Source of the DNA: Candidatus Heimdallarchaeum aukensis
GTDB lineage: Archaea; Asgardarchaeota; Heimdallarchaeia; Heimdallarchaeales; Heimdallarchaeaceae
DNA length: 64,000 bases
Direction: 5' to 3'
Assembly: GCA_021513695.1 (NCBI GenBank)
Contig: CP084166.1
Span: forward strand, 928,001 to 992,000
The notes beneath the pieces are model-generated. The model saw only the letters and a program-made list of their open reading frames with translations. It had not been told where the DNA came from and did not search any database. The translations under genes and the position numbers were made by a program. This document shows positions 13,301 through 36,246 of this stretch, one piece after another (the stretch's first letter is position 1; the number at the start of each line of letters is the position of its first letter).

Positions 13301-16300
13301 CACACTACTTAGTTCAGCTTAAACACTTTAGACGTGAAAAATTGGTTAATGGTTTTAGGTGATTTTCACACTACTTAGTTCAGCTTAAACGTAAAGAGAA
13401 AAGAAGAAAGAAAAAGAACGATAAAAGAATTTTCACACTACTTAGTTCAGCTTAAACGAGATATTGCAACATTTTGCTACAAAAATATCTAAAAAATTTT
13501 CACACTACTTAGTTCAGCTTAAACTTTGAAGTATCTGTGATGTCTTTTGTGACTACTCCTGATTTTCACACTACTTAGTTCAGCTTAAACCTTACAGAGG
13601 GAGAATATGCGGGACAATATATTATTACATTTTCACACTACTTAGTTCAGCTTAAACATAGAAGAAGAGCTCATTACAACTTTCCTTTTCCGTGATTTTC
13701 ACACTACTTAGTTCAGCTTAAACAAGCGTCAGTAGCACCTACAAGCGGGACATTCACAAGATTTTCACACTACTTAGTTCAGCTTAAACTCTATTTTATA
13801 TACTTTCTCTAATTCTAAACTTCTACTATTTTCACACTACTTAGTTCAGCTTAAACAGTAGAAATGAAGGGGGGGTTAGGAGCTAGAAAAAATTTTCACA
13901 CTACTTAGTTCAGCTTAAACCAATTCTGTTAATTTGTTTATTTCTTCCCATCTTTCATTTTCACACTACTTAGTTCAGCTTAAACGATAAATGGTACAAT
14001 CGTTTGAACCCTTTTAGAAGAAATTTTCACACTACTTAGTTCAGCTTAAACAAGGTTATCGCCTTTACATTTAGGGTTCTCACAAGTAATTTTCACACTA
14101 CTTAGTTCAGCTTAAACTATTTATGTAAAAGTCCTCTTCATCTATTATTAAACTATTTTCACACTACTTAGTTCAGCTTAAACACTATAACTTTAAGCAC
14201 TTGTTTTACTATATCGAAAAATTTTCACACTACTTAGTTCAGCTTAAACAGTCCGTTCTCGTTTCTTATTTCTTCGTCATCGGTTCTAATTTTCACACTA
14301 CTTAGTTCAGCTTAAACATGATTTTGTATAGTTTCCTCTCTTTATAAATGAAAATTTTCACACTACTTAGTTCAGCTTAAACTCAGCGTTTTGTAGTTCT
14401 ATTTTTCGTAAGTCGTCATATTTTCACACTACTTAGTTCAGCTTAAACCATTTCTCCACCTCTTTTTCATTTCTACTTGTTCTAATTTTCACACTACTTA
14501 GTTCAGCTTAAACTTGCTCTCTAAATATATTGCATACATTCCTTTTCTGATTTTCACACTACTTAGTTCAGCTTAAACTGAACAAACACTCACAATCTTA
14601 TCTAATCTTTCAAACGTATTTTCACACTACTTAGTTCAGCTTAAACAAACTGAAGTCATGTCAAAGTTAGAAGCCCAACTATATTTTCACACTACTTAGT
14701 TCAGCTTAAACGAGCTTTTACTGAAGCAGAACTAAAAAGAAATACCCCAAATTTTCACACTACTTAGTTCAGCTTAAACCATTGAATTCCTCTTTCTTCC
14801 TCTGCACAATAGTGAATTTTCACACTACTTAGTTCAGCTTAAACACGGTGCTCTGAAATGATGGAGTTTGAACAAAAATATTTTCACACTACTTAGTTCA
14901 GCTTAAACGTACAATTATGTTAAATATAGAAGAATAAAAAGGAATTTTCACACTACTTAGTTCAGCTTAAACGATAAAAATGGTAGAAGAGCATAAGAAG
15001 AATGAGCTTAATTTTCACACTACTTAGTTCAGCTTAAACTCTATCCTCCTTTTTTTTGGTTTGCAGTTTATACAAGAATTTTCACACTACTTAGTTCAGC
15101 TTAAACTTCATAGAACTTGATGTTAGGGTTAGGAAAAACCTCATTTTCACACTACTTAGTTCAGCTTAAACTGTAGCTTTGAAAGTTTATCATAGTTATG
15201 TGAGAATTATTTTCACACTACTTAGTTCAGCTTAAACAGATGAAATTTCCGAATTAGTTACTTTATTTCCGTCTGATTTTCACACTACTTAGTTCAGCTT
15301 AAACATTGGAGCTCTTCCCTTGACAATACAAATATTACAAATTTTCACACTACTTAGTTCAGCTTAAACGAACGATTACAGTATAGAACAGACGAATATT
15401 ATTATATTTTCACACTACTTAGTTCAGCTTAAACATCAGCAACTCTTTGCTGGTTCTCAAGAGCTTTTTGATTTTCACACTACTTAGTTCAGCTTAAACG
15501 TGAAAAGTCTCTTGTGTAGGTATATCGTGCTGCGTATTTTCACACTACTTAGTTCAGCTTAAACAGGTTCTCACTTTGGACAAAAGAAGCAAGTTTAGAC
15601 GAATTTTCACACTACTTAGTTCAGCTTAAACTTTCTCCTGAAAGAAGATCGTATGGTAACGAATACGTATTTTCACACTACTTAGTTCAGCTTAAACTCT
15701 ACCACAATGAAGATCATGAGAAGAAACCCACACATTTTCACACTACTTAGTTCAGCTTAAACATTTTTTTCACCCATAATCATTTCCACCCCTCTTTGAT
15801 TTTCACACTACTTAGTTCAGCTTAAACTCAAGGTCAAAATGGGGAAAAAGGTCGAACTATGGTATTTTCACACTACTTAGTTCAGCTTAAACAACGCTTG
15901 TTTTGGGGTTTCACACCCCAAAATCTTATTTTCACACTACTTAGTTCAGCTTAAACTCTGCTTTATCTTCTTCTTTTTCACAATCTCTATGAATTTTCAC
16001 ACTACTTAGTTCAGCTTAAACTTTGCACCTATTATATTTTAAGAGTAAAGAATATAATTTTCACACTACTTAGTTCAGCTTAAACCAGAGAAAGACGCGG
16101 GTTCAATTTCGTATAAGTAAGTAATTTTCACACTACTTAGTTCAGCTTAAACTATCTTCTTTATCTCTTTTTCTACTAACTCATTCTTATTTTCACACTA
16201 CTTAGTTCAGCTTAAACTAGATAAAGGAAGTTTAGATAAAGCGATACAAGAATTGCTAAATTTTCACACTACTTAGTTCAGCTTAAACAAGCGAGTTCAG

Positions 16301-16420
16301 TATCTTCTTTTTCCTCATAGACCTTAATTTTCACACTACTTAGTTCAGCTTAAACATTTATTCCTGCTATACGCAATAGACTTGAAAACGTATTTTCACA
16401 CTACTTAGTTCAGCTTAAAC
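10342..16420 (-). CRISPR. CRISPR array 1, about 93 repeats / 92 spacers (hand count), 29-bp repeat, transcribed on the minus strand
   Basis: Plus-strand unit ATTTTCACACTACTTAGTTCAGCTTAAAC is the reverse complement of the array 2 repeat. Spacers are mostly 34-40 bp, with one of 27 bp. The length 6079 bp equals 93 x 29 plus 92 spacers averaging about 36.8 bp. The leader is at the 16421 end. Confidence 0.98.
11738..13063. repeat. Perfect tandem duplication (2 x 663 bp) of a block of 10 spacer-repeat units inside array 1
   Basis: 11738-12400 and 12401-13063 read identically. Both run from spacer CTGACTTTTTTGGAGAATTTGG... to spacer TCACCTATATATATGATGTTCTAACACATAAAAATC. Confidence 0.9.
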
Positions 16421-16520
16421 GAAGTTTATTTTCTTTTCTAGCTATATTTTTCTCTCGTTTTGTCACTCACCTTCCTGGTCGACCTCCAATAAGGTATTAA
16501 CTTTATAAATATTGACCAGA
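16421..16520 (-). promoter_or_regulatory. Leader of CRISPR array 1 (TATA-like ATTTATAAAG, GGTCGACC palindrome)
   Basis: The reverse complement is nearly identical to 28872-28971 upstream of array 2. The core ATTATTGGAGGTCGACCAGGAAGGTGAGTGACAAAA and the junction CTAGAAAAGAAAATAAACTTC are identical. Confidence 0.75.
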
Positions 16521-16569
16521 TACATAAACGTTTACCTTATAAACAATGACTAGTACCATTAAATTTGCT

Positions 16570-18075
16570 TTATTTTTTTGCTATTTTCTCTGCAATTACA
16601 GGATGTTTTTCGTTTACTGCATACCAGAATTTTGCCTTTCCTTTTAAATTTGGTTTTATTATTATCCATCCCTTTTTTTCCATATCTACTAGGATTCTTG
16701 GTTTATTCATTTTGAATTGATTTATGTTTATTTTTTTATGATCATGGTATTTATTTTCTTTTTGCATCCATTCATTTATTTTCCTGAAGCTCCCTGCAGC
16801 TAATCCACCTATCAAGATTGACCCATCCATACAGAGTTTGTATTCTTTTGGTTTTTCCAGTACTGACATGTATTTATCTATCATAAAGTCTAAAATTATT
16901 TCATGTTCTCCCTCTGGCCTTTCGAACATTTTTTCTTTTGTTCCTTCTTTAATTATTTTATTTTTTAGTTTGTCTAGTTGACTATTTTTTTCAAGAAGCA
17001 ACCTATTTTTTTCATGTGGGTCCCATAAATTTATTTTCTCAATTAATATTTGTTCTAAGTTTTGATACTCTCTTTCAATTACTAATTTTGTACTTATTTT
17101 CTTGAATATTTTTCTCTGGTAATTTTGTGGCAGGTAGTATGATCTTCTTCCTATAGAGTGATATAGAATTGGATTTAGGGTATTAACTATATAGTTTACT
17201 AGAGCTATTTTTTCTTCCATGTTTAGCTCCGAAAAGATATTTTCTTCTATTATTGATACTATTCTTTGTATTAGAGTTTTAATCATGAAAGCTGTTAGAA
17301 TAGCTTTTTTTACTCTCTTTTTGAATAATTCATTTTTCTTTTTGTAATGTACTATAGCATAAGTATCAATTCCGAGGGATAAAACGTCTATTTTTTCCTT
17401 TGAGCTATATATCTTTTCTATGTTTTTTTCTTCTAACTTTTGAAAATGAACACTAGGTAATTCAATTATTGAGATGACATTTGAAGATTCTAAATAAATA
17501 TTACTAAATTCTTTAAAGAATGCTCTAAGCAAACAAAATTTTACCTGTTCATTTTTCTTTTTTTTGCCTTTTTCATTTGTAAATATTTTTATTATTTCCC
17601 TTCGTAAATTTTCTAAACTCTCTTCTTCCAGAATTTTTTCACTTAAAATTACTTTCTTTTCTACTTCAGCTATTAATGATGGATAAATGTTTATCTTTTT
17701 TAATCCATTTACGATTTTAACTACTGTTCTTGGTTCATTCCAATAAACAGTTCTTGTTTCAATTGGAATAAGCGGTCTTAAAGGCACTCTTCTAAAAAAT
17801 AAATATTTTTTAGCGTAATAGTACAGATATGAATCATTAGTCAATTTCAGAAAAAGACTTGAGTAGTATGGAATGAAAATGTCGAACTTTTTTCTACCTT
17901 TTCTTATTACCATTTTTATTCTTTTTTTGAACTCTGTTTCTGATTTAAGGAAAGAGAGTTCTTTTCTAATCTTTTTTGAATAAAGGATTTCTGGAATGGC
18001 ATAAAACTGATGGAAAGAGATTTTTATTGTATTCATTTTATTCTCCCTAATACCATTTTTGAAGAGTAGTATCAT
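16570..18075 (-). CDS. Hypothetical ~490-aa protein, no family recognised; second gene of the wHTH operon upstream of the array 1 leader
   Basis: Long uninterrupted ORF. The probable true start is ATG at 18036, preceded by a GGGAG SD that overlaps the TAG stop of the upstream gene. Lys/Glu-rich, with no P-loop and no Cys clusters. Confidence 0.6.
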   Translation of the reverse strand: MILLFKNGIRENKMNTIKISFHQFYAIPEILYSKKIRKELSFLKSETEFKKRIKMVIRKGRKKFDIFIPYYSSLFLKLTNDSYLYYYAKKYLFFRRVPLRPLIPIETRTVYWNEPRTVVKIVNGLKKINIYPSLIAEVEKKVILSEKILEEESLENLRREIIKIFTNEKGKKKKNEQVKFCLLRAFFKEFSNIYLESSNVISIIELPSVHFQKLEEKNIEKIYSSKEKIDVLSLGIDTYAIVHYKKKNELFKKRVKKAILTAFMIKTLIQRIVSIIEENIFSELNMEEKIALVNYIVNTLNPILYHSIGRRSYYLPQNYQRKIFKKISTKLVIEREYQNLEQILIEKINLWDPHEKNRLLLEKNSQLDKLKNKIIKEGTKEKMFERPEGEHEIILDFMIDKYMSVLEKPKEYKLCMDGSILIGGLAAGSFRKINEWMQKENKYHDHKKININQFKMNKPRILVDMEKKGWIIIKPNLKGKAKFWYAVNEKHPVIAEKIAKK

Positions 18076-19525
18076 ATCTTGAAGTTGGCAGATTTACTCT
18101 TTTAGTATACATAAAGCTGGTTATAAAAAAATAAGGTTCTTCTTCTTCAAAAATCGAAGAAAACAAATCTATGAAATTAATTACTAATTCATTGGGTATT
18201 CTTACTGTAACAATTAGTCCCTTTTCATCTGTTATTAAATTAGTAAACGGTTCAGAATAAACTTCTGGAAACAGAGATAATCTATCATGAATCTCTTTTT
18301 GATCCACTTTTTTCTTAAATATAATCATCACATCGTTAGTTCCAAAAATTGGTATTATATTTACTCTTTTTATGTATAGTTGTTCATTTGTGAAGTGTTT
18401 CAAATATTTTCTTATTGTGCTCTGTGAAATATTAGTTTCCTTCTCTATTCTACTTACAGTCAAATCTCTATTCTTAATTATATATTCAAGTATCTTAAGG
18501 CCAGGCTTAGTTAATTTTAATTCACTTTCTTTTGTGTCTTCGAATCTAGGTTTCAATTCATTCTTTGTTTTACTCTTATTATGAAGTGCAATTGCAATTT
18601 CGCTTATCGAATAATTCCAATTTTTGTTTTTATAATCATATTTTGAATAATCAAACGTTGTTATCTGTTCTTCTCTATGCAGAACTAAAATTTCATATTT
18701 TGTTATTTCTTTTTTCTTGATTGACAAGTCAAAAAATTCACTTATTCTCCTACATATCTCCTTCAACAAGGGCACTGGGAATGAGTAGTAGAGTAACAAT
18801 GCCTTGCATGATGTATTCAGTGTCATCGATTTTCTTAAGAACATTTTAGGGAAATTTTCTTTTTTATGTATTGAAGAGAGTTCATCAAATCCATAAACAA
18901 TCACAAGAAGCAAGACAAAGTTTGTCTTTTTCAAATTCAAACTTATTCCTTCATAGATTATTCCTTTATCAAAGAGTAATTTTTTTGTTCTTGTTATATT
19001 TCCTGCATCTTTATTCAAAATTTTACTTAATTCTTTGGTTGAAGTAATTTGATATTTGATCATTGCTTGTAGTAATGAAAACTCTGCTTTTGTTAGACTA
19101 GGCTTGATTCTACTCCTTAATGTAAAAAAGAATCTCAGGAAAAGAGACCAATTTTCTAATAGTATTTTATTTTTTTTATATTCTAAAATAGAAAGTAATT
19201 TATTAGCTGTTTCTTCATCTTGAAGAAACTGTTTATATGACGAGAATATTACATATTTCAAATCATTATATTCTTTCTCTGTACTATATTCAGACCAAAA
19301 ATTCAACCATTTTTCTAATTGTTGTCTAGTTATGCTTTTTTTTCCTTTATTTTTCTGAAAATAAAGTATTCTATATATTTTAAAACATATTAAATCCCAA
19401 GCAGGTGTTTTTGGAACTATATTTAGTTCTTCAACTTTTTTTTTAAAAAATTTAAAATGTGATCCTAAGATTTCTCTCCCTTTCTCTAAAATTACTTCTC
19501 TTTCTTTTATTTGAGAATATTTCAT
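18047..19525 (-). CDS. 492-aa protein with two Lrp/AsnC- or MarR-like winged-helix segments; paralog of 34762..36246
   Basis: wHTH-like segments LTKAEFSLLQAMIKYQITSTKELSKILNKDAGNITRTKKLLFDKGIIYEG and LTKPGLKILEYIIKNRDLTVSRIEKETNISQSTIRKYLKHFTNEQLYIKRVNIIPIFG. Colinear similarity to the 494-aa ORF along the full length, for example LSLFPEVYSEP vs LSFFPEVYSEP and W.NFW..YS. Confidence 0.65.
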   Translation of the reverse strand: MKYSQIKEREVILEKGREILGSHFKFFKKKVEELNIVPKTPAWDLICFKIYRILYFQKNKGKKSITRQQLEKWLNFWSEYSTEKEYNDLKYVIFSSYKQFLQDEETANKLLSILEYKKNKILLENWSLFLRFFFTLRSRIKPSLTKAEFSLLQAMIKYQITSTKELSKILNKDAGNITRTKKLLFDKGIIYEGISLNLKKTNFVLLLVIVYGFDELSSIHKKENFPKMFLRKSMTLNTSCKALLLYYSFPVPLLKEICRRISEFFDLSIKKKEITKYEILVLHREEQITTFDYSKYDYKNKNWNYSISEIAIALHNKSKTKNELKPRFEDTKESELKLTKPGLKILEYIIKNRDLTVSRIEKETNISQSTIRKYLKHFTNEQLYIKRVNIIPIFGTNDVMIIFKKKVDQKEIHDRLSLFPEVYSEPFTNLITDEKGLIVTVRIPNELVINFIDLFSSIFEEEEPYFFITSFMYTKRVNLPTSRYDTTLQKWY

Positions 19526-19724
19526 CCAAGTTTAAATTTATTGTCAGTTTAAATTTTTTTTGTAATACTGACCTTGAACTATTGTCCAAAATAGACAAAG
19601 CTTATCCTTTTAGTTTTATTCTATTTCAAGCCTTCTAAGTAGATAGTTTTTAAATTACTTCACAGACATTTTCGATTTTTTGTTGTCCAGAGATGTATTG
19701 TCACAATTAAAAAGAGGTGACAAA

Positions 19725-19799
19725 ATGAAAAAGGATTATTATCTTCCTCCTCCTGAAGATGATGAACCAAATGATCCAGAACCATTTCCTTTTCCTTAA
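19725..19799 (+). CDS. Candidate micro-ORF (24 aa, MKKDYYLPPPEDDEPNDPEPFPFP) with a strong Shine-Dalgarno
   Basis: GAGGTGA (19714-19720) lies 4 nt before the ATG. This resembles the GGTGA-N5/6-ATG context of bona fide genes in this window, with a slightly shorter spacer. It is not in the ORF track because it is too short. Confidence 0.3.
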   Translation: MKKDYYLPPPEDDEPNDPEPFPFP

Positions 19800-19809
19800 A
19801 AGGGATAAA

Positions 19810-19893
19810 GAAGGTATTAAAACCTTCACGTTCTTCTACTAACAACCTAAGAACGTCCAATTATACAATTGGACTTCTTTTTTTATTTTTTTC
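19810..19893 (+). terminator. Three abutting perfect hairpins followed by an oligo-T tract
   Basis: GAAGGT(19810-15)/ACCTTC(19822-27); ACGTTCTT(19828-35)/AAGAACGT(19849-56); CCAATT(19857-62)/AATTGG(19867-72); then ACTTCTTTTTTTATTTTTTTC. Confidence 0.35.
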
Positions 19894-20010: not shown

Positions 20011-20022
20011 GTTGAGATAAAA

Positions 20023-20745
20023 TTGTTGATGAGGATTCTTATTTCTTTTAAGCCTAAATTTGATGTTTCAGAGGATGCCATAGTAAAACATGATATTCAA
20101 GGATTTATTTATAATCTAATCAAGTACAAAGATACTAAAGTTCTTTTAGATCATGATAAACATCATTTCAAATTTTTTTGTTTTAGCGATATTTTTCCTC
20201 AAGGTGATTTTAAAAAAGGAGAGACAAAAAATCTGTTAATTAGTTCTCCTACAAAAGAGCTAATAAATTTAATTGATGATAATCTTCCTCTTGAGAAATC
20301 CTATAGATTAGCTGGATTAACCATCGAAGTTATATCCAAAAAAACTTTTAACTTTCCCACAAAAAACAACTTTATTTCTGGAAGTCCTATAGTTTTATAC
20401 AAAGATAATACAAAGAATGAATATTTTAGCTTTAAGAAACACAAAAGTCTTAATTTCTTTCTCAATAGATTACAAGAAAATGCTGTGAAAAAGTATCAAA
20501 TTTACTATAACGATCCTGAATTTCAATTGTCTGGAAAGATTTTTGATACAATTGAATTTAGAAAGGAGGTTGCAGTTCACAACAGGAAACAAGGAAATGA
20601 ATTTATTCACATTGGCACTCTTTGGAAAAAATTAGAAAAAGAATACATAAAGAAAGAAGAAAGAAGGTTTTATCATTTTATCATGGAAAGTGGTCTTGGC
20701 GAAAAAAATAGTATGGGTTTTGGTTTTTTAAATCCTATTCAATAA
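20023..20745 (+). CDS. cas6: Cas6 crRNA endoribonuclease
   Basis: 240 aa. C-terminal glycine-rich loop GLGEKNSMGFGFLN typical of Cas6. First gene of a canonical I-B order. Probable start ATG at 20029. Confidence 0.85.
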   Translation: MLMRILISFKPKFDVSEDAIVKHDIQGFIYNLIKYKDTKVLLDHDKHHFKFFCFSDIFPQGDFKKGETKNLLISSPTKELINLIDDNLPLEKSYRLAGLTIEVISKKTFNFPTKNNFISGSPIVLYKDNTKNEYFSFKKHKSLNFFLNRLQENAVKKYQIYYNDPEFQLSGKIFDTIEFRKEVAVHNRKQGNEFIHIGTLWKKLEKEYIKKEERRFYHFIMESGLGEKNSMGFGFLNPIQ

Positions 20746-20850
20746 ATTGTATTTTTTTGTTTAAATTTTACAATTAATTTTTGAAAAAACAACCTTTAAA
20801 ATATTTTTTTCTTTCTGTTTTACCAATAAAACTTAATTATTGGTGTTCCA

Positions 20851-22863
20851 TTGATACAAGCAGTTAAACAATTAGGAAAAAAAATACGAGAGATTTATCC
20901 TGAAAAATATGCAGATTTTGTCGATGTCTTTATTGCAGATGTAAAAACAGATTTATTTTTGATAGAATTAGAGAAAAAAGAAAACGATTTTCAATATAAT
21001 AAAATTGTTTGGATGGAACCAAAACCTGAGATAATTCCTAAATTACTTTATAAAGACTTTGGGAGAAATATCAAAATTAGACCTGCGCCTGTAGCTAAAG
21101 TAGGTTATTTCCAGACCAAATCAAAAGATGGTAAAATTTCAGAAAAAGAGCTCGAGAATCACAAGAAGAAAATAAAAAGCGAACTAGACGCTTCCATAAT
21201 TAAATGGTTTTCTCAAGAAATTGATAGAAGAAAAGAAGGTAGTGAAAAAAGAATTTTCTTGGAAAATATAAAAAAAGGAATACTCAATTCATTAGATAAT
21301 ATAATTACAGATATTAAAGAACAGATGGATTTTTCAGGTCAAAATAAGAAAAAAAATGAAAAGTGTATAATAACACTACAATTTTTGGAAGGTGGTAAAG
21401 AATATTACCTTCGTGACTTTGATATTTTTTCTAAAGCTTTTTTAGATAAAAACTTGGAACGTTACGCAAATAAATGGGGAATAACTTCTAAAGGAGAAGA
21501 TGCTGTTTGTTCATTATGTCATGAGAAAAAAGAAGAAGTCTTTGGTTGTGCCTCAGACATTTTTAGCTGGTACACTCTTGATAAAAGAGGATTTGCACCA
21601 TTCTTTGATCAGACTTTAGGATGGAAACTATTTCCTGTCTGTAAAGAATGTATTATTGATCTAGAGATAGGCAAAAAATTTGTTTTAAACAATCTACGTC
21701 TTAAGTTTAATGATTTTACTAACTTTTTCTTAATTCCAAAGCTTCTAAATCCTAAAATTATCGATAAGGGTATTTTGAGAAGATTTGAGCTTTTCAAGAG
21801 TATTTCAGTTGAAAATAATGAACTATTGGAAAAATATAGGAAAAAAGAAGAGATACTTAAGAGAGCTACAAAAAGCACAATTGAAATGATCGGAGAACAA
21901 GAAAAAGATAACAATTTTACGCAGAATATGATTTTCCTGAATTTAATTTTCTTTGATGATGATGGAAAATCTATAAAGATTCTACGTAGTATTGAAGATG
22001 TTCTTCCTTCCAGGTTTGTTCAGATAACTGATGAGCTATATAAAATAAATAAGGATGAAACTTTGGACAGCTATAAAATTTATTTGCAATTAGTTTTAAA
22101 CATCTTATATCTGGAAAAAGAAAGTAAACGCGGTTCTACAATTGATAAAAAGTATTTATCTACAATCGATTCTCTTCTTAAAGATGTACCTTTAGATTAT
22201 GATGTTCTTATAAAGGATATCGCTTCAAGTTGTCAAGAGATAGTAAAGGAAAGTTATCTTTCTGATAACAATCTAAAAAAAATAGCTAAAAAAATTACAA
22301 ATATTGACAAAGGTAATAATGACGTAGAATTTGGCAACTCTTATGAGTTAATAATTAATGCTTATTTAAAATATTTAGTTTTATTAAAAAGATTAAATCT
22401 AATCCAAAAATGGAGGGTATCAAAAATGATTGATAAAACAGGACTTGAAGAAGAAATATCAGATAATAAGAGTCGACTAAGCATCTTAAATTCAATATTT
22501 AATGCTTATTCTGACTTTTTTGATCAACCCATTATTCGTGCTGTCTTTGTATTAGGCATTTTGACTAAGCTATTGATGAATATTCAGTATCGCAATCTCA
22601 ATGCTACGCCTTTTTTCAACAGGTTAAATGGGTTAAAATTGAATAAAAGAATAATAATCAAACTTGTTTCCGAAGTAAAAGGAAAACTAAGTGAATACTC
22701 TATAGCTTATGTTGATTTAGAAGAAGAGATGGCTAAATACTTCTTAGAAGCTGGTCACAATTGGCTGGTTTCTGATGACGAACTTAGTTTCTTCTTCGCT
22801 TTGGGAATGAATAACGCGAGTAAATTTAAATCAGAAACAAAAGAAGGTGAAGAAAATGAGTGA
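20851..22863 (+). CDS. cas8b: Cas8b-type large subunit of type I-B Cascade
   Basis: 670 aa, located between cas6 and cas7. Cys pairs CSLCHEKK...CKEC. The call rests mostly on size and synteny. Confidence 0.75.
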   Translation: MIQAVKQLGKKIREIYPEKYADFVDVFIADVKTDLFLIELEKKENDFQYNKIVWMEPKPEIIPKLLYKDFGRNIKIRPAPVAKVGYFQTKSKDGKISEKELENHKKKIKSELDASIIKWFSQEIDRRKEGSEKRIFLENIKKGILNSLDNIITDIKEQMDFSGQNKKKNEKCIITLQFLEGGKEYYLRDFDIFSKAFLDKNLERYANKWGITSKGEDAVCSLCHEKKEEVFGCASDIFSWYTLDKRGFAPFFDQTLGWKLFPVCKECIIDLEIGKKFVLNNLRLKFNDFTNFFLIPKLLNPKIIDKGILRRFELFKSISVENNELLEKYRKKEEILKRATKSTIEMIGEQEKDNNFTQNMIFLNLIFFDDDGKSIKILRSIEDVLPSRFVQITDELYKINKDETLDSYKIYLQLVLNILYLEKESKRGSTIDKKYLSTIDSLLKDVPLDYDVLIKDIASSCQEIVKESYLSDNNLKKIAKKITNIDKGNNDVEFGNSYELIINAYLKYLVLLKRLNLIQKWRVSKMIDKTGLEEEISDNKSRLSILNSIFNAYSDFFDQPIIRAVFVLGILTKLLMNIQYRNLNATPFFNRLNGLKLNKRIIIKLVSEVKGKLSEYSIAYVDLEEEMAKYFLEAGHNWLVSDDELSFFFALGMNNASKFKSETKEGEENE

Positions 22864-23785
22864 AATAATAAAAAATAGGTCTGAAATAGTTTTTTTGTAT
22901 GATGTTAGAGACGGTAATCCAAATGGTGACCCTGCTGATGGGAACAAGCCTAGGATTGATGAAACCAGTGGTATCAACATAGTAACTGATGTTCGACTAA
23001 AGAGAACAATAAGAGACTATATAAACAAGGTTAAAGGCCATGAAATTTTTGTTAAAAAGATAGAAGACTTAGAAGGGATAATCCAAACTTCTAAACAACG
23101 AGCACAAGATTTTCAGAATGATCCAGATAAGATTCTTTCTGAATGCGTGGATGTCAGGATGTTTGGGGGAACTATACCAATAAAAATTTCTGATAAGAAA
23201 GATGGTAGCATTACTTTTACTGGTCCCGTTCAATTCTCTATGGGGAGATCTCTTCACAGAGTCGAGTTAAAACATGTTAAAGGAACAGGAGCTTTTGCTT
23301 CTTCAGAAGGAAAGAAACAACAGACTTTTCGAGAAGAGTGGATACTACCTTATTCACTAATAAGCTTTTATGGTGTAATAAATGAGAATGGTGCAGAAGA
23401 TACACAGTTAACCGAAGAGGATGTTAAGCTTCTTGTAGAAAGTATCTGGAATGGGACTAATGATTTGTTAACAAGAAGTAAGATGGTTCATAGATCTAGA
23501 GTTCTTTTACAAATTATTTACCAAGAGAAAAACTTCCATGTCGGAGAGCTTGACAAAAAGATTAAGATGAAGGCTAAAGTTGAAGATGAAAAAATTAGAG
23601 GTACGGATGACTACACTCTTGAATTTGATAATTTTGTAGAAGCGATCAAAAATAACAAAGAAAAAGTAAAAATTATTCGTTACAAAGTAGATGACAGTAT
23701 TAATCTTGAATTTAATGGTGACAAAAAGACTATAGAAGAGATTCTAAAACTTACAGAATGTGAATTGGAAGAGCTGAAATTTTAA
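22847..23785 (+). CDS. cas7: Cas7 (Csh2/Csd2-family backbone subunit)
   Basis: N-terminal signature IVFLYDVRDGNPNGDPADGNKPRID. The track start GTG lies inside the SD GGTGA; the probable start is ATG at 22856. Confidence 0.9.
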   Translation: MKKMSEIIKNRSEIVFLYDVRDGNPNGDPADGNKPRIDETSGINIVTDVRLKRTIRDYINKVKGHEIFVKKIEDLEGIIQTSKQRAQDFQNDPDKILSECVDVRMFGGTIPIKISDKKDGSITFTGPVQFSMGRSLHRVELKHVKGTGAFASSEGKKQQTFREEWILPYSLISFYGVINENGAEDTQLTEEDVKLLVESIWNGTNDLLTRSKMVHRSRVLLQIIYQEKNFHVGELDKKIKMKAKVEDEKIRGTDDYTLEFDNFVEAIKNNKEKVKIIRYKVDDSINLEFNGDKKTIEEILKLTECELEELKF

Positions 23786-23791
23786 TAATAG

Positions 23792-24553
23792 GTGAGACTA
23801 ATGCTAAAACAGGAAGCTGAAGTAAGAGAAGTTTTAGTTTTCGATATTTGGGGTGATTTTGCTCATTTTAAGAAAAACTATGCTACAACTTCAGCTCTTA
23901 CATACAATTTTCCTCCTCGAAATACTATTGCAGGAATAATTGGAGCAATTTTAGGTTTAAAGAGGGCAGATTTTCCTGAAAAATTGTCTCCTGAAAAGAG
24001 TTACATTGGTGTTTCAATACTCTCTCCAATAATGAAAAAAACTATTACAATGAATCTTATTCACACTAAACCTTCTGAATCACTTATATTCAAAAATAAT
24101 TTTGGTTATTTCAAAAAGCACACACAGATTCCTTTTCAATTTTTATCTAATATCTCATTTAGGGTGTATTTTTCAACTGACGATGAGGAAATGTTTTCAC
24201 AACTATATACATATCTTAAAAACCATAAGTCTCATTATACAGTTTCGTTAGGTTTGAGCAATCTACTTTGTAACTTTAAGTTAATAGGAAAAAAAACAAT
24301 AAGAAAAAAAGAAGTAGCTAACAAAGAAGTAGAGGTTTTAACAGTAATTCCGATGAACAAAGTCAAAGAAGTAAATGTGTTTAAAAATCCTAAAATGAAT
24401 ATCGAGAATTTACCCAGATTTATCGATAGTTCAAGAACAGTTCATGAATACCAGGAAGTTCTATCAAGCATGGATCCAGAAAAACCTCTTTTTGTAGTCC
24501 CTAGAGATACCTTATGGGAGATTGAAAATGACAAATTCATCAGTTTCCTCTGA
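23792..24553 (+). CDS. cas5: Cas5 (type I-B)
   Basis: N-terminal Cas5 signature VFDIWGDFAHFKKNYATTSALTYNFPPRNTIAGIIGAILG. Confidence 0.85.
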   Translation: MRLMLKQEAEVREVLVFDIWGDFAHFKKNYATTSALTYNFPPRNTIAGIIGAILGLKRADFPEKLSPEKSYIGVSILSPIMKKTITMNLIHTKPSESLIFKNNFGYFKKHTQIPFQFLSNISFRVYFSTDDEEMFSQLYTYLKNHKSHYTVSLGLSNLLCNFKLIGKKTIRKKEVANKEVEVLTVIPMNKVKEVNVFKNPKMNIENLPRFIDSSRTVHEYQEVLSSMDPEKPLFVVPRDTLWEIENDKFISFL

Positions 24554-26990
24554 AAATCAGATAAACATTTTTTCTCACCCTAATAAAAATATTTTAGAAC
24601 ATTTAAGTGAGACAGAAAGAGAAATTCTAAATATCCTTGAAAAACTACAGCCCAATTTTTCAATCAAAAAAAACATTATTATCGAAATCGCTAGAATTTT
24701 AGCTTTAACACATGATATTGGAAAATGCACAATCTTTTTTCAAGAATATCTTCATTCAAACGAAGAAAATAACTTCAAAAAATTGGGAGAATATCAAAGT
24801 TCAAAACTTCACCACCATGGACTAATCTCTGCAGTTTTTACCTATTATACACTAAAGAAACTTTTAAATTCAAATAATGAGCAGTTCTATGACCTGAATA
24901 GTGGATATAAAGACCTATTACCTCATATAGGCTTTTTAACAACAAAAAAACATCATGGTAATTTAGGAAATTTTTATGATGAGATTATTATAAACAGAAC
25001 AAGTGAAGAAAAGATTAGACAGCAACTAGAAAATTTCCATCCCCAATTCGAAAATGTTGTCGAATTCATAAGAAATAAAATTAATATAACAATTTCATTT
25101 AATGAATTTTCAGAATCCTTTGGAGATTTAATTGATGAATTAGCTTTCAGTGATGAACTATTATTGAACTATTATGAAAATAGTAGAGATTGTGAACTTT
25201 ATCTATTTACTTTATTTTTACATTCAATCTTAACAGATGCAGATAAAACTTCTGCTATTGGTGTCTCTAAGCCTATTCTTCCATTTATTTCTTCTAACAA
25301 AATTATCAAAAACAGGAAAAAAATAATCCAGAAAAAAGGAAAAAAGACATATTTAGATAACTTAAGAGAGAATATTTACAAAGAAGTAATTGCAAAGATA
25401 GAAAAAACACCTTTAGATAACAAAATATTTACATTAACAGCTCCTACAGGTTCAGGAAAAACTCTCACAGTTTTTGAAGCAGCATTTAGATTGAAAGATA
25501 AAATTTTAAGGAGAACTAATATAGAAATGAAAATTATTTATTGCCTTCCATTTCTCAGCATCATTGATCAAAATGCTCACATTATTAACCAACTGCTAGA
25601 TCCTGACTCAGTTAAGTTTCTTCCTTCAACTCAACTACTAATTCATCATTACTTGGCAGAAGTTCAATACAGCTCTTATGAAGAAGATTATACCTTTGAT
25701 GAAAGTAGATTCCTAATTGAGGATTGGCATTCTTCAGTTATTATTACAACCTTTATTCAGCTTTTTCATAGTATTTTTACCAATAGAAATAGCAAGATAA
25801 GGAAACATCACAATATACAAAATTCTATCATAATACTTGATGAAGTTCAAAACATTCCTCATAAGTATTGGTTATTGATCAGGGAAGTTTTTCAAAGATT
25901 ATCAGAGATCGAGAATGTTTATATCATTTTTACAACAGCCACACAGCCTAAAATTTTTAGTTCAGAAGAGAAAGTTGTTGAATTACTTGAAAATAAGGAA
26001 AAATACTTTGAACAGTTAAGTAGAATTACTTTAGAACCAAAAATTGATAACAATATCACACTCAACGAGTTTATTTTAGAAATTAATGAGAAACTGCAAA
26101 AGAACAGTGACAAGGATATTCTAATTGTTGCGAATACAATCCGAGAAGCTCAAGAGATTTTTGACAGTATTAATTTTAAAAAAGATCATGATAAGTTATT
26201 TTTCCTTTCAAGTCAAATAATCCCTAGAAAGAGGAAAGAAAGAATTGAAGAAATAAAGAGAAAATTAGAAAAAGAAAAAGATAAAAGAGAGAGTAATGAA
26301 AAACGAATTATTTTAGTAACTACCCAATTAATTGAAGCAGGAGTAGATATCGATTTTGATATTGTAATAAGAGATTTAGGACCAATAGATTCTATAAATC
26401 AAGTAGCAGGAAGATGTAACAGAAACGGAGAAGAAGAAAAGGGAAAAACAATTGTTTATTCAGTCATTGACCAAAAAACAAAAAGATTATTTGCTTCATA
26501 CATTTATGACGGATTTATTTTAAGTAAAACGAAGGATGTTCTAAAAAACAAAAGAGTGATAGAAGAACAAGAATTCCTCAAAATCATTGACGATTATTAT
26601 TTAAGCATCGAAAAGACAGGGGACACAATAACCTCCACTAATATACTAGACTCTATCTTTAATTTAGAGTTTGATGAAATAGGTAAATTTAGCCTGATAG
26701 AAGAAAGAGCTGATCAAGTTCCTGTTTTTATTGAGATAGATAAAAAGGCAAAGGAAATTTGGGCAGAATATTTGGAAATATGGAATATTAAAGATTGGAA
26801 GAAAAGAAATGAGAAATTTATAAAAATCAAAAATGATCTCTATAGTAACTTAATTAACGTAGACAAGAAAAAAATCAAAACAATTGAGCAAATAAAGGGT
26901 TATTATTATATCGATTTTCAAAATGCTAGGAACTACTACGACAATGAAAAAGGTTTCATTGGGAAAGAAAAAGATGTTATTTTATTATAA
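24522..26990 (+). CDS. cas3: Cas3 HD nuclease / DExH helicase fusion
   Basis: HD region LALTHDIGK...HHHG. Helicase Walker A APTGSGKT, Walker B IILDEVQ, and motifs TATQP and QVAGRCNR. Confidence 0.95.
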   Translation: MKMTNSSVSSENQINIFSHPNKNILEHLSETEREILNILEKLQPNFSIKKNIIIEIARILALTHDIGKCTIFFQEYLHSNEENNFKKLGEYQSSKLHHHGLISAVFTYYTLKKLLNSNNEQFYDLNSGYKDLLPHIGFLTTKKHHGNLGNFYDEIIINRTSEEKIRQQLENFHPQFENVVEFIRNKINITISFNEFSESFGDLIDELAFSDELLLNYYENSRDCELYLFTLFLHSILTDADKTSAIGVSKPILPFISSNKIIKNRKKIIQKKGKKTYLDNLRENIYKEVIAKIEKTPLDNKIFTLTAPTGSGKTLTVFEAAFRLKDKILRRTNIEMKIIYCLPFLSIIDQNAHIINQLLDPDSVKFLPSTQLLIHHYLAEVQYSSYEEDYTFDESRFLIEDWHSSVIITTFIQLFHSIFTNRNSKIRKHHNIQNSIIILDEVQNIPHKYWLLIREVFQRLSEIENVYIIFTTATQPKIFSSEEKVVELLENKEKYFEQLSRITLEPKIDNNITLNEFILEINEKLQKNSDKDILIVANTIREAQEIFDSINFKKDHDKLFFLSSQIIPRKRKERIEEIKRKLEKEKDKRESNEKRIILVTTQLIEAGVDIDFDIVIRDLGPIDSINQVAGRCNRNGEEEKGKTIVYSVIDQKTKRLFASYIYDGFILSKTKDVLKNKRVIEEQEFLKIIDDYYLSIEKTGDTITSTNILDSIFNLEFDEIGKFSLIEERADQVPVFIEIDKKAKEIWAEYLEIWNIKDWKKRNEKFIKIKNDLYSNLINVDKKKIKTIEQIKGYYYIDFQNARNYYDNEKGFIGKEKDVILL

Positions 26991-27002
26991 CGAAATGATG
27001 GA

Positions 27003-27031
27003 GTTCAAGCTAAACTAAGTAGTATGAAAAT
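27003..27031 (+). repeat. Solitary degenerate CRISPR repeat (26/29 identical to the array repeat) between cas3 and cas4
   Basis: GTTCAAGCTAAACTAAGTAGTATGAAAAT vs GTTTAAGCTGAACTAAGTAGTGTGAAAAT, in the same orientation as the cas genes. No second repeat follows. Confidence 0.8.
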
Positions 27032-27073
27032 TAGAGGTAGAAGTAATGGTATTAAATTCTTGGTGAAATTGTA

Positions 27074-27604
27074 ATGGTGGAGTTAAATCATATTAGCATT
27101 AAGAATACTGATTTTGCAGTAACTGGAGTAATGGTTCAATATTTATTTTCATGTAAAAGAGAATTGTGGTTTTTTACCAAAAAAATTGATTTCAACAAAG
27201 AGGATCAGAACATTCAAATTGGCAAAATAATACATGAAACAAGCTATAAACGAAATAAAAAAGAGTTTGACTTAGGTTTTGTAAAATTTGACTTAATTGA
27301 AACAAAAAACAGGATAATAATTTCTGAAATAAAAAAATCTTCAAAACTTTTGGAACCTGCAAAAATGCAACTTTTGTATTATGTTTACATTTTAAGTAAA
27401 ATAACTGAAAAAGAAGTAGAAGGAGAAATTAGAATTCCAAAAGAGAGAAAAAAAGTAAAGATTCAATTGCAAAACGAAGAAGAAAAATTAATTCAAAAAG
27501 CTTTGAGAGAGATTAAAGAAATTTCCTTACTGGAAAGACCTCCCAAAGCAGAAAAAAAATTTTATTGTAAGAATTGCGCTTATTACATTTTTTGCTGGGT
27601 TTGA
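27074..27604 (+). CDS. cas4: Cas4 (RecB-like nuclease with Fe-S Cys cluster)
   Basis: 176 aa. One N-terminal Cys (FSCKRELWF) plus a C-terminal CKNCAYYIFC. Sits before cas1. SD GGTGA at 27062-27066. Confidence 0.85.
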   Translation: MVELNHISIKNTDFAVTGVMVQYLFSCKRELWFFTKKIDFNKEDQNIQIGKIIHETSYKRNKKEFDLGFVKFDLIETKNRIIISEIKKSSKLLEPAKMQLLYYVYILSKITEKEVEGEIRIPKERKKVKIQLQNEEEKLIQKALREIKEISLLERPPKAEKKFYCKNCAYYIFCWV

Positions 27605-28591
27605 GTGAAAAAAATGAAAGATTCTATTTACATTACAAAGGAAGGAGTAATTTACAGAAAAGATAATACTATTGTTTTTCAAAATCAAGAACAAAAGCAT
27701 ACTTTACCTATCGAAGCAGTGAAAGATATATATTGTATTGGCAAAGTAACTATAAGATCTGGAGCAGCTTATCAACTAATGGAAAAAAGGATTCCTGTAC
27801 ATTTTTTCGGAAAATATGGACACTATAGAGGAACATTACAACCAAAACAAGATCTAATCTCTGGAGAAGTAATAGTAAAACAAGTTCAACATTATACTGA
27901 TTACATAAAAAGAATAAAAATTGCAAAAGAGATGTTTAAAGGAATAAAACACAACATTCTCTGGGTTCTAAAATATTACAAATCAAAAAGAGATATAGAA
28001 GATGTAGTTGAAAAAATTGAACATGTTAATATTCAAGAAGAAATATTAAAAATAAATACATTAAGAAGTTTAGAAGGTCAAATATGGGAACTTTTCTATC
28101 AAGCTGCTGATACAATTTGTCCTTCATGGGGTTTTAGAAAAAGGACTAGAAGGCCTCCTTTAGATGAAGGAAATGCACTAATATCTTATGGAAACTCAGT
28201 TCTATATGGAAAAACAATTTCTGAAATATTCAAAACTTATCTTCATCCTGCAATTTCGTTTATACACGAACCAAGTGAAAGAAGGTACTCTTTAGCCTTA
28301 GATCTAGCTGATATTTTCAAACCAGTAATAGTTTTTAGAACAGTCTTCAGGCTTATAAATCAGAAAATAATTTCAAAGAAAGATTTTGAAAAAGAAGTAG
28401 GAGTCCAAATTTCAGAAAAAGGAAAAAAAGTATTTATCACAGAATTAGAAAAAACATTCACAACTACAGTAAGACATCCAAATCTGAAAAGAAATACCTC
28501 ATACCAGTTTTTGATAAGACTTGAAGGACTAAAAATAATGAAACATGTTCTAGGAGATAAAAAATATGAAAGCTTTAAAGCATGGTGGTAG
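27605..28591 (+). CDS. cas1: Cas1 integrase
   Basis: 328 aa in the canonical position, with the conserved C-terminal acidic block SLALDLADIFKP. Probable start ATG at 27614. Confidence 0.9.
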   Translation: MKKMKDSIYITKEGVIYRKDNTIVFQNQEQKHTLPIEAVKDIYCIGKVTIRSGAAYQLMEKRIPVHFFGKYGHYRGTLQPKQDLISGEVIVKQVQHYTDYIKRIKIAKEMFKGIKHNILWVLKYYKSKRDIEDVVEKIEHVNIQEEILKINTLRSLEGQIWELFYQAADTICPSWGFRKRTRRPPLDEGNALISYGNSVLYGKTISEIFKTYLHPAISFIHEPSERRYSLALDLADIFKPVIVFRTVFRLINQKIISKKDFEKEVGVQISEKGKKVFITELEKTFTTTVRHPNLKRNTSYQFLIRLEGLKIMKHVLGDKKYESFKAWW

Positions 28592-28857
28592 AGATATACG
28601 TGATAATCGTTTATGACGTGGGAGAAGAAAGAGTAAATAGAATACATAAATTCTTGAAAGCATATTTAACATGGACACAAAATTCAGTATTTGAAGGAAA
28701 AATAACAAAAGCAACATTAGCTCAAATAAAAACAGGAATAAAAAGCATAATAAAAAAAGAAGTCGATTCAATAAAAATATTCAAAATAAAAGGAGAACAA
28801 TGGATGAATATTGAAATAATGGGAGTAGAAAAAAATAAGTTTCAGAATATAATTTAG
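28582..28857 (+). CDS. cas2: Cas2
   Basis: 91 aa. N-terminal beta-strand YVIIVYDV typical of Cas2. Overlaps the cas1 end and is followed directly by the leader. Confidence 0.85.
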   Translation: MVVEIYVIIVYDVGEERVNRIHKFLKAYLTWTQNSVFEGKITKATLAQIKTGIKSIIKKEVDSIKIFKIKGEQWMNIEIMGVEKNKFQNII

Positions 28858-28971
28858 GTAAATCGTAAGAATCAGGTCGACATTTATAAAGATGATACAT
28901 TATTGGAGGTCGACCAGGAAGGTGAGTGACAAAAGGAAAGAAAAATATAACTAGAAAAGAAAATAAACTTC
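28858..28971 (+). promoter_or_regulatory. Leader of CRISPR array 2 (TATA-like ATTTATAAAG at 28882-28891; GGTCGAC at 28875 and GGTCGACC at 28908)
   Basis: Homologous to the reverse complement of 16421-16520. Ends ...AAAATAAACTTC directly before the first repeat. Confidence 0.75.
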
Positions 28972-34761: not shown

Positions 34762-36246
34762 ATGGTTGATTTTGGTCTTATTGATCTTCAAGAAGCAATG
34801 AATGAAGCTGAGACCATATTAGGTGACAAATATACTTATTTTCAGTCATTAATTACAAAATATTCTGTAAAGCCAAGCAAGCCATTTTGGGATATAATTA
34901 TTTTTCTTACAGGTTTAAAGGTATACAAAGATACTGAACTATTTAACAAATGGATTAATTTTTGGAACAAGTATTCAGTATCAAGAAAATACAAGAACCT
35001 TATTTATCAGCCTTCTGCTTCTTTTTCTCCTTTCTTAACTGAAGAAGAAGCAGAAAAAAAGTTCACTAAACTGCTGAAAATGCTTTATAACCGCGATAGT
35101 GAACTTACCGAAGATCAACTTTGGACTTTATTTTTTTCTCTTTTTTATAAGCTTCGAAATGCAATTAAACCTAAATTCAGTAAGGTTGAATTTAGAGTAT
35201 TTCTAACTATTCTTAGCGAACAAACAACTATTCTTTCTACCCTCAACAAAAGTTTGATGATGGCAAAATCCAATCTTTCTGCATACATAAAAAGAATTAG
35301 AGAGAAAAAAGTTATTTTCGAAGGTTTTTTACTAAACCTAAGAAAATTTAACCTAAGTATTTTCTATTCAAGGATTAAATATCCTTTGTCATGTAATGAA
35401 AAAATTACTAAAATTATTCCTAGAGGAAAATTCTTAAGAAGAGTTTATGAGGGTCATATTGCATGTAATTATACTTTTCTGAGCTATTTAGCACCAAATT
35501 TAGATGAAATTAAAAAAGAATTTCTAAAAAACAAAAAAGAGATTTTGGAAGTTATTCCAAATGCTGAAATAGATTTTTTTAGAAGTGATAGAAATAGTAG
35601 ACTATATTCTTTCAATTACAGTAATTATGATTTCAAAAAGGGAAAATGGAATTTTGATATAGATGACATAAATTATAATTTATTTTGGCTTAATAATACA
35701 AAGAATAGCAAAACAGACAATTTAGTTAAGATAATTGAAAATTTTCCTTCTAACGAAGATTATGAACTAAAATTTGATAAAGAAACACTAGACATCCTAA
35801 GGTTTTTCTACTTAAATCCACAAAAGTCAGTTTCACAGATTATTGAAGAAATGGATGTAAGAGAAAGCAAAATAAGAAAAGCTATCAGTGACTTTGAAGA
35901 AAATCAAATTTTAAGAGCGAGAGTGAACCCTGCACCAGTATTTGGTTTGTCTAACATTATTCTCTATATTAAAGAGAAAAAAGACAAATTGAGAAAAATA
36001 CATGAAGAGCTTTCTTTTTTCCCAGAAGTTTATAGTGAACCTTTAGTTAATATCGAGACACAAGAGGAAGAGCTAATGATTATTGTAAGAGCTCCTGAAG
36101 CAATAACATTTCAAGTTGTAGAAGCTCTTTATCAAAAATATGAAAAAAAGATAGTGGGTTTATTCCTTATTGATCAAATGTACTCAACAAGGCAGGATCT
36201 TCCTCTAGAGAACTTTGATACTTTATTTAAGAGATGGAAAATATAA
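34762..36246 (+). CDS. 494-aa double winged-helix protein, paralog of 18047..19525
   Basis: Colinear matches to the 492-aa protein: ILGDKY/ILGSHF, KPFWDIIIF/TPAWDLICF, WINFWNKYS/WLNFWSEYS, IKPKFSKVEF/IKPSLTKAEF, NYSNYDFKKGKWNF/DYSKYDYKNKNWNY, LSFFPEVYSEP/LSLFPEVYSEP. Confidence 0.65.
   Translation: MVDFGLIDLQEAMNEAETILGDKYTYFQSLITKYSVKPSKPFWDIIIFLTGLKVYKDTELFNKWINFWNKYSVSRKYKNLIYQPSASFSPFLTEEEAEKKFTKLLKMLYNRDSELTEDQLWTLFFSLFYKLRNAIKPKFSKVEFRVFLTILSEQTTILSTLNKSLMMAKSNLSAYIKRIREKKVIFEGFLLNLRKFNLSIFYSRIKYPLSCNEKITKIIPRGKFLRRVYEGHIACNYTFLSYLAPNLDEIKKEFLKNKKEILEVIPNAEIDFFRSDRNSRLYSFNYSNYDFKKGKWNFDIDDINYNLFWLNNTKNSKTDNLVKIIENFPSNEDYELKFDKETLDILRFFYLNPQKSVSQIIEEMDVRESKIRKAISDFEENQILRARVNPAPVFGLSNIILYIKEKKDKLRKIHEELSFFPEVYSEPLVNIETQEEELMIIVRAPEAITFQVVEALYQKYEKKIVGLFLIDQMYSTRQDLPLENFDTLFKRWKI

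Follow-up and report, generated by a model that had tools for sequence, protein, structure and literature searches.

An Asgard-specific module of a double Lrp/AsnC protein, a partner protein and a micro-ORF linked to CRISPR-Cas loci in Candidatus Heimdallarchaeum aukensis

In a stretch of 64,000 nucleotides from the circular metagenome-assembled genome (MAG) of Candidatus Heimdallarchaeum aukensis (contig CP084166.1, positions 928,001 to 992,000; hereafter the window), we identified an Asgard-specific, CRISPR-Cas-linked module of three parts. Two of them were co-oriented open reading frames (ORFs), ORF1 and ORF2, that occupied the gap separating the leader of a CRISPR array (array 1) from cas6 in a type I-B locus. 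The third was a micro-ORF located between ORF1 and cas6, divergent from the former and co-directional with the latter. A preliminary description of this DNA, made from the sequence alone, had put forward the pair as a candidate for a new CRISPR-associated module. The neighbourhood survey of homologs bore this out: a member of the ORF1 family adjoined cas genes in 9 of the 12 informative loci, with ORF1 identities of 16-54%. The linkage to cas genes was robust and the components were new.

Linkage to cas operons of several subtypes

The survey sample was small, and many of the loci stemmed from two related metagenomes of one environment. Locus L012 was too short to judge and was left out of the informative set. 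The linked systems were of subtypes I-B, I-D, III-A and III-B and of another type I. The informative loci, in which the family occurred either as an ORF1-ORF2 pair or as a solo ORF1 copy, were organized as follows.

Window, type I-B: pair divergent from cas6
Window paralog: solo copy, 1.2 kb past the trailer end of array 2
L005/6, type I-B: pair laid out as in the window, divergent from cas6 at a distance of 409 nt
L007/9, type I: pair followed, 104 nt further along its own strand, by cas7-like, cas8-like, cas7 and cas5 genes
L008, type I: pair divergent from cas6, followed by genes for putative large and small subunits, cas7, cas5 and cas3
L010/11, type I-D: pair divergent from cas10d at a distance of 517 nt; an additional solo paralog located 1.2 kb downstream
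L013, type I-D: pair as the first two genes before cas10d-csc2-csc1-cas3-cas6
L014/15, type III-B: pair in reversed gene order, directly upstream of the cmr operon
L002, type III-A: solo paralog with cas6 on one side and a DUF2797-like gene and cas1 on the other
L003: pair with no cas gene within 10 kb and no array; housekeeping neighbours
L016/17: pair with no cas gene within 10 kb and no array (L016); MNT/HepT and AAA_14/DUF4143 neighbours
L004: solo copy with no cas gene within 10 kb; housekeeping neighbours

The module nearly always headed the effector operon. In the window, L005, L008, L010 and L002 it was divergent from cas6 or cas10d, and the gap of 260-540 nt formed a promoter region that held the micro-ORF; in L007, L013 and L014 it preceded the first effector gene by 100-140 nt in the same orientation. 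Such a head position is the classic layout of a dedicated regulator. On the rough guess that about 4% of a genome falls within 10 kb of cas genes, the chance of linkage in 9 of 12 loci would be of the order of 1e-10, a very strong enrichment, with the reservation that the loci were not fully independent. The operational test for a CRISPR-associated ancillary gene asks for a non-random proximity to cas genes or arrays in diverged loci and several subtypes, and the module displayed it in this sample. According to the preliminary description, homologs that were frequent in CRISPR-less genomes and showed no neighbourhood enrichment, or a membership in a known unrelated system such as plasmid or provirus replication, would have spoken against such an association. 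The former was seen in part, since the family members in L003, L004 and L016/17 had no cas gene within 10 kb. The latter was not seen: no relatives of the module were detected in phage, plasmid and IMG/VR collections, and a plasmid or provirus origin was ruled out on this ground.

Relatives of ORF1 were found by an exhaustive profile search of 1.84 billion representative proteins, which produced 47 matches, about 25 of them full-length (476-531 aa). The named relatives came from Candidatus Heimdallarchaeaceae and, in a distant subgroup, from Thorarchaeota, and all of them were annotated as hypothetical. A single relative was present among 185,579 GTDB species representatives, and a search of the JGI metagenome collection for related loci returned nothing. 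Word-index homology searches, even with a 23-sequence profile, recovered only a near-identical strain contig, probably because the AT-rich composition swamped the word filter. The MAG ACTSP3 possessed at least three diverged copies, two of which were located beside different CRISPR-Cas loci, and this fits cognate, locus-specific partners.

The ORF1 paralog of the window (34762-36246; accession UJG41612.1, annotated as hypothetical) had been overlooked in the preliminary description. It matched ORF1 over the full length with 31% identity (E 4e-67) and was located past the trailer end of array 2. It clustered with the solo copies P0003 and P0006, and the solo paralogs formed a clade of their own. 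Its flanking genes, a 266-aa ORF at 33607-34407 (minus strand) and a gene for a 288-aa multi-pass membrane protein at 36485-37351 (plus strand), could not be assigned to any family.

Two observations concerned the neighbouring genes of the collected loci. In several CRISPR-Cas loci of Heimdallarchaeaceae a gene for a DUF2797-like protein (about 290-310 aa, weak match) was located between cas6 and cas1, in the slot expected for cas4:

L002, 11691-12620: DUF2797-like gene
L008, 578-1489: DUF2797-like gene
L010, 1146-2006: DUF2797-like gene

Upstream of the module in the III-B locus L014 (2939-4075 and 4335-7629) there was a SAVED-domain protein together with an incomplete I-D-like set, made up of Csc2 and two proteins of 605 and 222 aa, which suggests a composite island of CRISPR-Cas and CBASS-like (cyclic oligonucleotide-based antiphage signalling) genes.

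Components of the module

The window contained the following features.

18047..19525, minus strand: ORF1, 492 aa
16570..18036, minus strand: ORF2, 488 aa
19725..19799, plus strand: micro-ORF MKKDYYLPPPEDDEPNDPEPFPFP, 24 aa, with the Shine-Dalgarno (SD) sequence GAGGTGA at 19715-19721
19801..19893, plus strand: RNA elements 3' of the micro-ORF (stem-loop, second hairpin and oligo-T run)
20023..28860, plus strand: type I-B cas operon, cas6-cas8b-cas7-cas5-cas3-cas4-cas1-cas2, divergent from ORF1
16421-16520, minus strand: array 1 leader, about 100 nt, with the TATA-like TTTATAAA and then the GGTCGACC palindrome
10342-16420, minus strand (direction of transcription): CRISPR array 1, 93 repeats of GTTTAAGCTGAACTAAGTAGTGTGAAAAT
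28872-28971: array 2 leader, near-identical to the array 1 leader
28972-33583: CRISPR array 2, 71 repeats
34762..36246, plus strand: ORF1 paralog, 494 aa, with no ORF2 partner

ORF1, ORF2, their junction, the leader, the arrays and the cas operon were all present where the preliminary description had placed them. The genes from cas6 to cas1 (cas6, cas8b, cas7, cas5, cas3, cas4 and cas1; 20023-28591) were identified by Pfam, and cas2 came next.

ORF1 consisted of an N-terminal helical domain (residues ~1-137) and two fused Lrp/AsnC units. Namely, unit 1 was formed by a winged helix-turn-helix (wHTH1, residues 146-186) with a RAM-like domain (190-305), and unit 2 by wHTH2 (340-380) with a RAM-like domain (384-492). 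Both winged helices had already been noted in the preliminary description, and they were recovered here through an HVO_A0114/MarR-like match for the first (residues 139-191, E 1.2e-4) and a Pfam HTH_24 match for the second (residues 343-381, E 1.7e-6). The earlier reading had overlooked that each helix-turn-helix (HTH) is part of a complete Lrp/AsnC unit. In the Pfam scan of ORF1 the HTHs were the only matches, and AsnC_trans_reg was not matched. The AlphaFold (AF2) model, built from a 23-sequence alignment, was confident (predicted local distance difference test, pLDDT, 87.9; predicted template modelling score, pTM, 0.84) and agreed with the two winged helices: it contained two three-helix wHTHs with a wing, each followed by a beta-alpha-beta-beta-alpha-beta domain. 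When the ORF1-family profile was compared with PDB sequences, its positions 329-472 matched residues 5-151 of PH1519/FL11 (E 3e-8), and its positions 134-272 matched residues 6-146 of PH0061 (E 4e-7).

Residues 131-303 of ORF1 aligned colinearly with residues 327-491, and both segments were terminated by a Y-D...W motif, which points to an internal duplication in ORF1. Since both halves matched full Lrp/AsnC proteins by profile and by model, ORF1 was a covalent Lrp/AsnC pseudo-dimer with an additional N-terminal domain, which is an architecture new to the Lrp/AsnC superfamily. The family shared the motifs PxWDIxCF, WxxFW, QTxS...SNxSKYxKxL, FNYxxYDxKxxxW, LSxFPEVYSEP and LPxxxFDxxxxxW, and its most conserved segment was the recognition helix of wHTH1, SNxSKYxKxL.

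ORF2 (accession UJG41601.1, annotated as hypothetical) had homologs with 16-35% identity that directly adjoined ORF1 homologs in 8 loci. No family had been recognizable in it at first sight, and our searches were equally empty: neither ORF2 nor its eight homologs had a match in Pfam, NCBIfam, PADLOC, PHROGs or PDB sequences. The hhalign comparison indicated that ORF2 and ORF1 were unrelated. We regard the ORF2 sequences as a new family, with the conserved motifs RPLIPxxTxxW, LNPxLYxS and YQRxxF. A Walker A motif (GxxxxGK[ST]) was searched for in ORF2 and not found, and the nine family sequences shared no invariant Asp, Glu, His, Cys or Ser; ORF2 is therefore probably no enzyme. Its C-terminal segment gave winged-helix matches and also read like a winged helix. 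It was likely that ORF2 is a non-enzymatic partner of about 490 aa with a C-terminal winged helix, putatively DNA-binding as well. An Orc1/Cdc6 initiator was considered and ruled out, because ORF2 had no GxxxxGK[ST] and no Pfam AAA match.

The two genes were translationally coupled. At their junction (...TGGTAT TAG GGAG AATAAA ATG) the TAG stop of ORF1 (18049-18047) overlapped GGGAG, an SD sequence located 6 nt before the ATG of ORF2 at 18036. The mechanically delimited ORF2 was longer (16570..18075, 501 aa); the start at 18036 was backed by the alignment of homolog N-termini (MNTIKISF / MNEIIITSF / MKEKIVLTF). In the homologous loci, the second gene abutted the first or overlapped it by 0-17 nt. 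The operon structure proposed in the preliminary description held.

A natural strain variant of the locus (L001) was 98-99% identical to the window at the DNA level. Synonymous changes outnumbered non-synonymous ones by 12 to 3 in ORF1 and by 10 to 7 in ORF2, and this excess indicated purifying selection on both genes. The leader-proximal spacers of L001 differed from those of the window; therefore, the array was active. The variant also carried two in-frame deletions, one of 90 nt in ORF1 (window 18117-18206), which cost the second RAM-like domain approximately residues 441-470, and one of 33 nt in ORF2 (window 17679-17711), and its ORF1-ORF2 junction was 1 nt shorter.

The micro-ORF at 19725-19799 was another element that the preliminary description had overlooked. 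Peptides with the core motif P-[DE]-D-P-[ED]-P-[FWYV]-P, which were 15-24 aa long, acidic and proline-rich, were encoded at the equivalent divergent position in L005, L008, L003, L007 and L010 and beside the ORF2 homolog in L002:

L005, 9415-9486, minus strand: ...PPPDDDPNDPEPFPVP
L008, 2627-2686, minus strand: ...PPDFPEDPEPFPYP
L003, 8438-8497, minus strand: ...FPPDDPEPWPP..., in a locus lacking cas genes
L007, 80-142, minus strand: ...PPEPFPNDPDPVPPQ
L010, about 9757-9804, minus strand: ...PDLPDDPDPWPPQ
L002, 959-1003, plus strand: MFGPDLPDDPDPYPP, with the ORF2 homolog alongside

The six-frame motif scan covered the window and the loci collected by that stage, and no further micro-ORFs matched; in particular, none was found by the Thor-type loci (L013, L014 and L016) or the solo paralogs. 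All copies carried a strong GAGGTG-type SD sequence, and in every one of them (7 loci) a stem-loop came right after the stop codon. All 7 loci retained its inner helix of 5 bp, in which 4 of the 5 pairs showed compensatory changes. In the window the inner stem was GAAGGT/ACCTTC at 19810-19827, followed by a second hairpin at 19855-19874 and an oligo-T run to 19893; scans for sigma-70 promoters and intrinsic terminators, which are uninformative for an archaeon, were used solely to locate the hairpins. The peptide had neither a hydrophobic signal segment nor a processing site, and it was composed almost wholly of motifs of the PPP, DDP, PDP and PPD type. It had no known relatives and can be considered a candidate small protein or leader peptide in archaea.

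Several further observations were made in the window. Within array 1, a segment of about 660 bp, or roughly ten repeat-spacer units, was duplicated (~11701-12400 versus 12364-13063; offset 663, 99% identity), and in array 2 one spacer unit was perfectly duplicated (32116-32272). An ORF with an rve-type integrase core, which was transposase-like, was located about 10 kb past array 2 (43335-44033, plus strand). The remaining window was chromosomal, with CobN/Mg-chelatase, Fe-ABC transporter and HdrA-like genes. No tRNA or Rfam elements were present in the window, and a search around 16400-20100 for repeats that would mark a mobile element gave nothing convincing.

Possible roles of the module

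The best-supported reading, to which we attach slightly less than even weight, is that the module serves as a dedicated regulator of the cas operon at its own locus. The gene structure, the folds, the conservation of the module and its cas linkage were observed directly, and from them we infer the DNA binding, the target and the signal. According to this model, a complex of ORF1 and ORF2 would bind the divergent promoter region that the module has in common with the first cas gene, and it would set the expression of the adjacent cas operon and, in the window, possibly of array 1 too. ORF1 would supply two DNA-reading heads, and its RAM-like domains would receive a signal. A number of observations weighed against such a role. 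A shared operator was sought in the intergenic regions between the micro-ORF and ORF1, and only the SD sequence and A/T-rich words were common to them. Strong palindromes with 9-10-bp arms were present in L003, L007, L002 and L012, while none above the shuffle expectation was detected in the window, L005, L008 and L010. A recognition helix that is conserved is not easily reconciled with operators specific to each locus, and a partner of about 490 aa together with a conserved peptide exceeds the needs of a simple regulator. The best structural match of ORF1 was NirDL, an enzyme rather than a regulator, and the structure model of ORF2 was poor (pLDDT 56), so that its domain assignment is tentative. 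The three loci lacking cas genes implied that the module can exist apart from CRISPR-Cas. Moreover, the origin of many loci from two metagenomes inflated their apparent independence.

The preliminary description had favoured a different role, in which ORF1 would bind the CRISPR leader or repeats in the manner of Cbp1 and, together with ORF2, would serve array 1 transcription or spacer integration, taking the place that cas4-cas1-cas2 holds at array 2. In the window, the operon indeed pointed into array 1, whose leader began about 50 nt past the ORF2 stop, and the paralog too was located near an array end. The GGTCGAC(C) palindrome (GGTCGACC) was confined within the 64 kb to the two CRISPR leaders (16477-16484, 28875-28881 and 28908-28915; 5 matches against 0.8 expected), where it adjoined the TATA-like TTTATAAA, on both sides of it in the array 2 leader. 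In L005 (about 325-365, minus strand) it flanked the TATA box of the leader in like manner. This palindrome is a candidate protein-binding or integration-anchoring site, and it would suit a dimeric or pseudo-dimeric wHTH protein. However, the leader-proximal slot was not conserved. The array that followed the ORF2 homolog in L005 was inverted, with its trailer end toward the module; the flanking 130 nt were unlike the leader, and the true leader was located by cas2. In L007, L008, L013 and L014 the module directly preceded effector cas genes rather than an array, in L010 it was divergent from cas10d, and L003 and L016 had no array at all. Repeat sequences and subtypes also varied, while the wHTH1 recognition helix stayed conserved. 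Therefore, the leader-binding idea was unsupported, and, for all the appeal that the palindromes lend it, we consider it distinctly unlikely.

It is conceivable, though rather unlikely, that the module is a peptide-sensing switch, in which the micro-ORF product acts as a ligand or antagonist of the ORF1 RAM-like domains or of ORF2 and the three genes make up a closed signalling circuit that gates CRISPR-Cas expression, or in which the micro-ORF is a ribosome-stalling leader that senses translation status through a dependence on aIF5A. The micro-ORF was conserved at the amino-acid level, with an invariant strong SD sequence and a covarying 3' hairpin in 7 loci, and it stayed with the module in the cas-less L003 and beside the ORF2 homolog alone in L002. 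RAM domains are generally known to bind ligands, and the motifs that make up the peptide are EF-P/eIF5A-dependent pause motifs, in agreement with stalling. On the other hand, a peptide lacking a signal sequence and a processing site leaves export unexplained, and the micro-ORF was not found next to L013, L014, L016 or the solo paralogs. A pure leader-peptide role was also at odds with L002, where no co-directional gene followed the micro-ORF. A wider version, a new kind of Asgard-specific control circuit in which the double-Lrp protein and its partner sense the peptide or its translation and switch cas operons of unrelated subtypes on and off, appears unlikely. Equally improbable, in our estimate, is a module independent of CRISPR-Cas that merely co-localised with cas genes in variable defence islands, be it a defence or conflict system in its own right or what is left of the maintenance or replication genes of a mobile element. 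It could account for the three loci lacking cas genes, of which L016/17 was surrounded by MNT/HepT and AAA_14/DUF4143 genes, and it agrees with the report that CRISPR-Cas loci in these genomes act as mobile, swappable islands (PMC8813620). Nevertheless, the module consistently stood at the very head of cas operons, in many cases on the strand of the first effector gene and 100-140 nt away from it, and the neighbours in L003 and L004 were housekeeping rather than defence genes. The lack of homologs in phage, plasmid and IMG/VR collections, of a PADLOC match for ORF2, and of an AAA+ domain or other enzymatic signature pointed in the same direction. Finally, ORF1 and ORF2 might be structural CRISPR parts, such as an IHF-like architectural factor for Cas1-Cas2 or an accessory subunit of the effector complex. 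Linkage to many subtypes and the large size of both proteins would suit this, as would the solo paralog of L002 directly upstream of the DUF2797-like gene and cas1; Lrp bends DNA, and the ORF1 pseudo-dimer could do so as well. We find this role highly improbable, because the rarity of the family implies its absence from most CRISPR-Cas loci, even in Asgard genomes, three loci had no cas genes, and effector operons were linked more often than cas1-cas2.

Regulation of archaeal CRISPR-Cas systems is known mainly from Csa3 and Cbp1 of Sulfolobales, and we know of nothing on such regulation in Asgard archaea. The analysis defined two or three new protein families, namely the double-Lrp protein, its partner and the micro-peptide, which track five kinds of CRISPR-Cas in genomes of the Heimdall and Thor lineages and which CRISPRCasTyper, PADLOC, Pfam and NCBIfam do not detect. 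If the module does control cas expression, it would offer a handle on how immunity is deployed in uncultured hosts and would represent a new case of a covalent Lrp pseudo-dimer as a dedicated regulator. If it is an independent passenger of the islands instead, the leader-binding hypothesis would still be corrected, and family definitions for neighbourhood surveys would be gained.

Comparison with known systems

No description of the ORF1, ORF2 or micro-ORF genes was found in the searchable literature, although absence there is no proof. Wu et al. (2022) used CRISPRCasTyper to annotate these loci, and this tool lacks models of the module genes. Among the core Cas profiles of Pfam, NCBIfam and PADLOC, ORF2 and its 8 homologs had no match, and the matches of ORF1 were to its HTHs only.

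Lrp/AsnC proteins are ligand-responsive DNA-binding regulators, and their RAM domains are ligand-binding modules. Similar to members such as FL11/PH1519, PH0061 and LrpA, both units of ORF1 had a wHTH followed by a RAM/ACT-like beta-alpha-beta-beta-alpha-beta domain. However, a typical member is one unit of about 150 aa that forms dimers or octamers via RAM, whereas ORF1 had 492 aa, two units and a 137-aa N-terminal domain. Its RAM-like units were extended, ended in the conserved Y-D...W and escaped the AsnC_trans_reg model, and it was encoded with a 490-aa partner and a micro-ORF in linkage to cas operons. The fused Lrp-like unit fold was shared with the siroheme decarboxylase NirDL/AhbA-AhbB, and to our knowledge the enzyme NirDL is the sole solved precedent for a fused double-Lrp architecture. 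In comparison to NirDL (PDB 4czc), ORF1 had 11% identity, an extra N-terminal domain and no NirD/AhbA match in Pfam or NCBIfam. Moreover, NirDL is an enzyme of haem d1/haem biosynthesis encoded among nir/ahb genes, while the neighbours of ORF1 were cas genes in 9 of 12 loci.

The divergent arrangement of a regulator and a gene for a peptide of about 20 aa around a shared intergenic region was reminiscent of Rgg/SHP, PrgX and AimR/AimP. Unlike Rgg/SHP and other RRNPP systems, the ORF1 module had no TPR match, its peptide was acidic and proline-rich with no export signal, and its host was an archaeon. As a multi-HTH protein tied to CRISPR loci, ORF1 also resembled Cbp1 of Sulfolobales. Cbp1 is a small protein of three HTH repeats that binds CRISPR repeats, and its gene is not known to adjoin cas genes; ORF1, in contrast, had 492 aa, was built of Lrp units and accompanied unrelated repeat sequences.

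The likeness to Csa3, raised in the preliminary description, was retained for the wHTH part and lost for the sensor part. Similar to Csa3/CasR, ORF1 was a wHTH protein located beside cas operons, and the PADLOC models of Csa3/CasR matched its wHTH2 (E 4.6e-8). This match was limited to model positions 133-173 of 194, which correspond to the wHTH, and the NCBIfam model cas_HTH (TIGR01884) scored 10 bits against a cutoff of 60.2. ORF1 did not have a CARF domain, and in its model the sensor domains were RAM-like rather than Rossmann-like as in CARF. ORF1 probably shares the job of Csa3/CasR, the control of cas expression.

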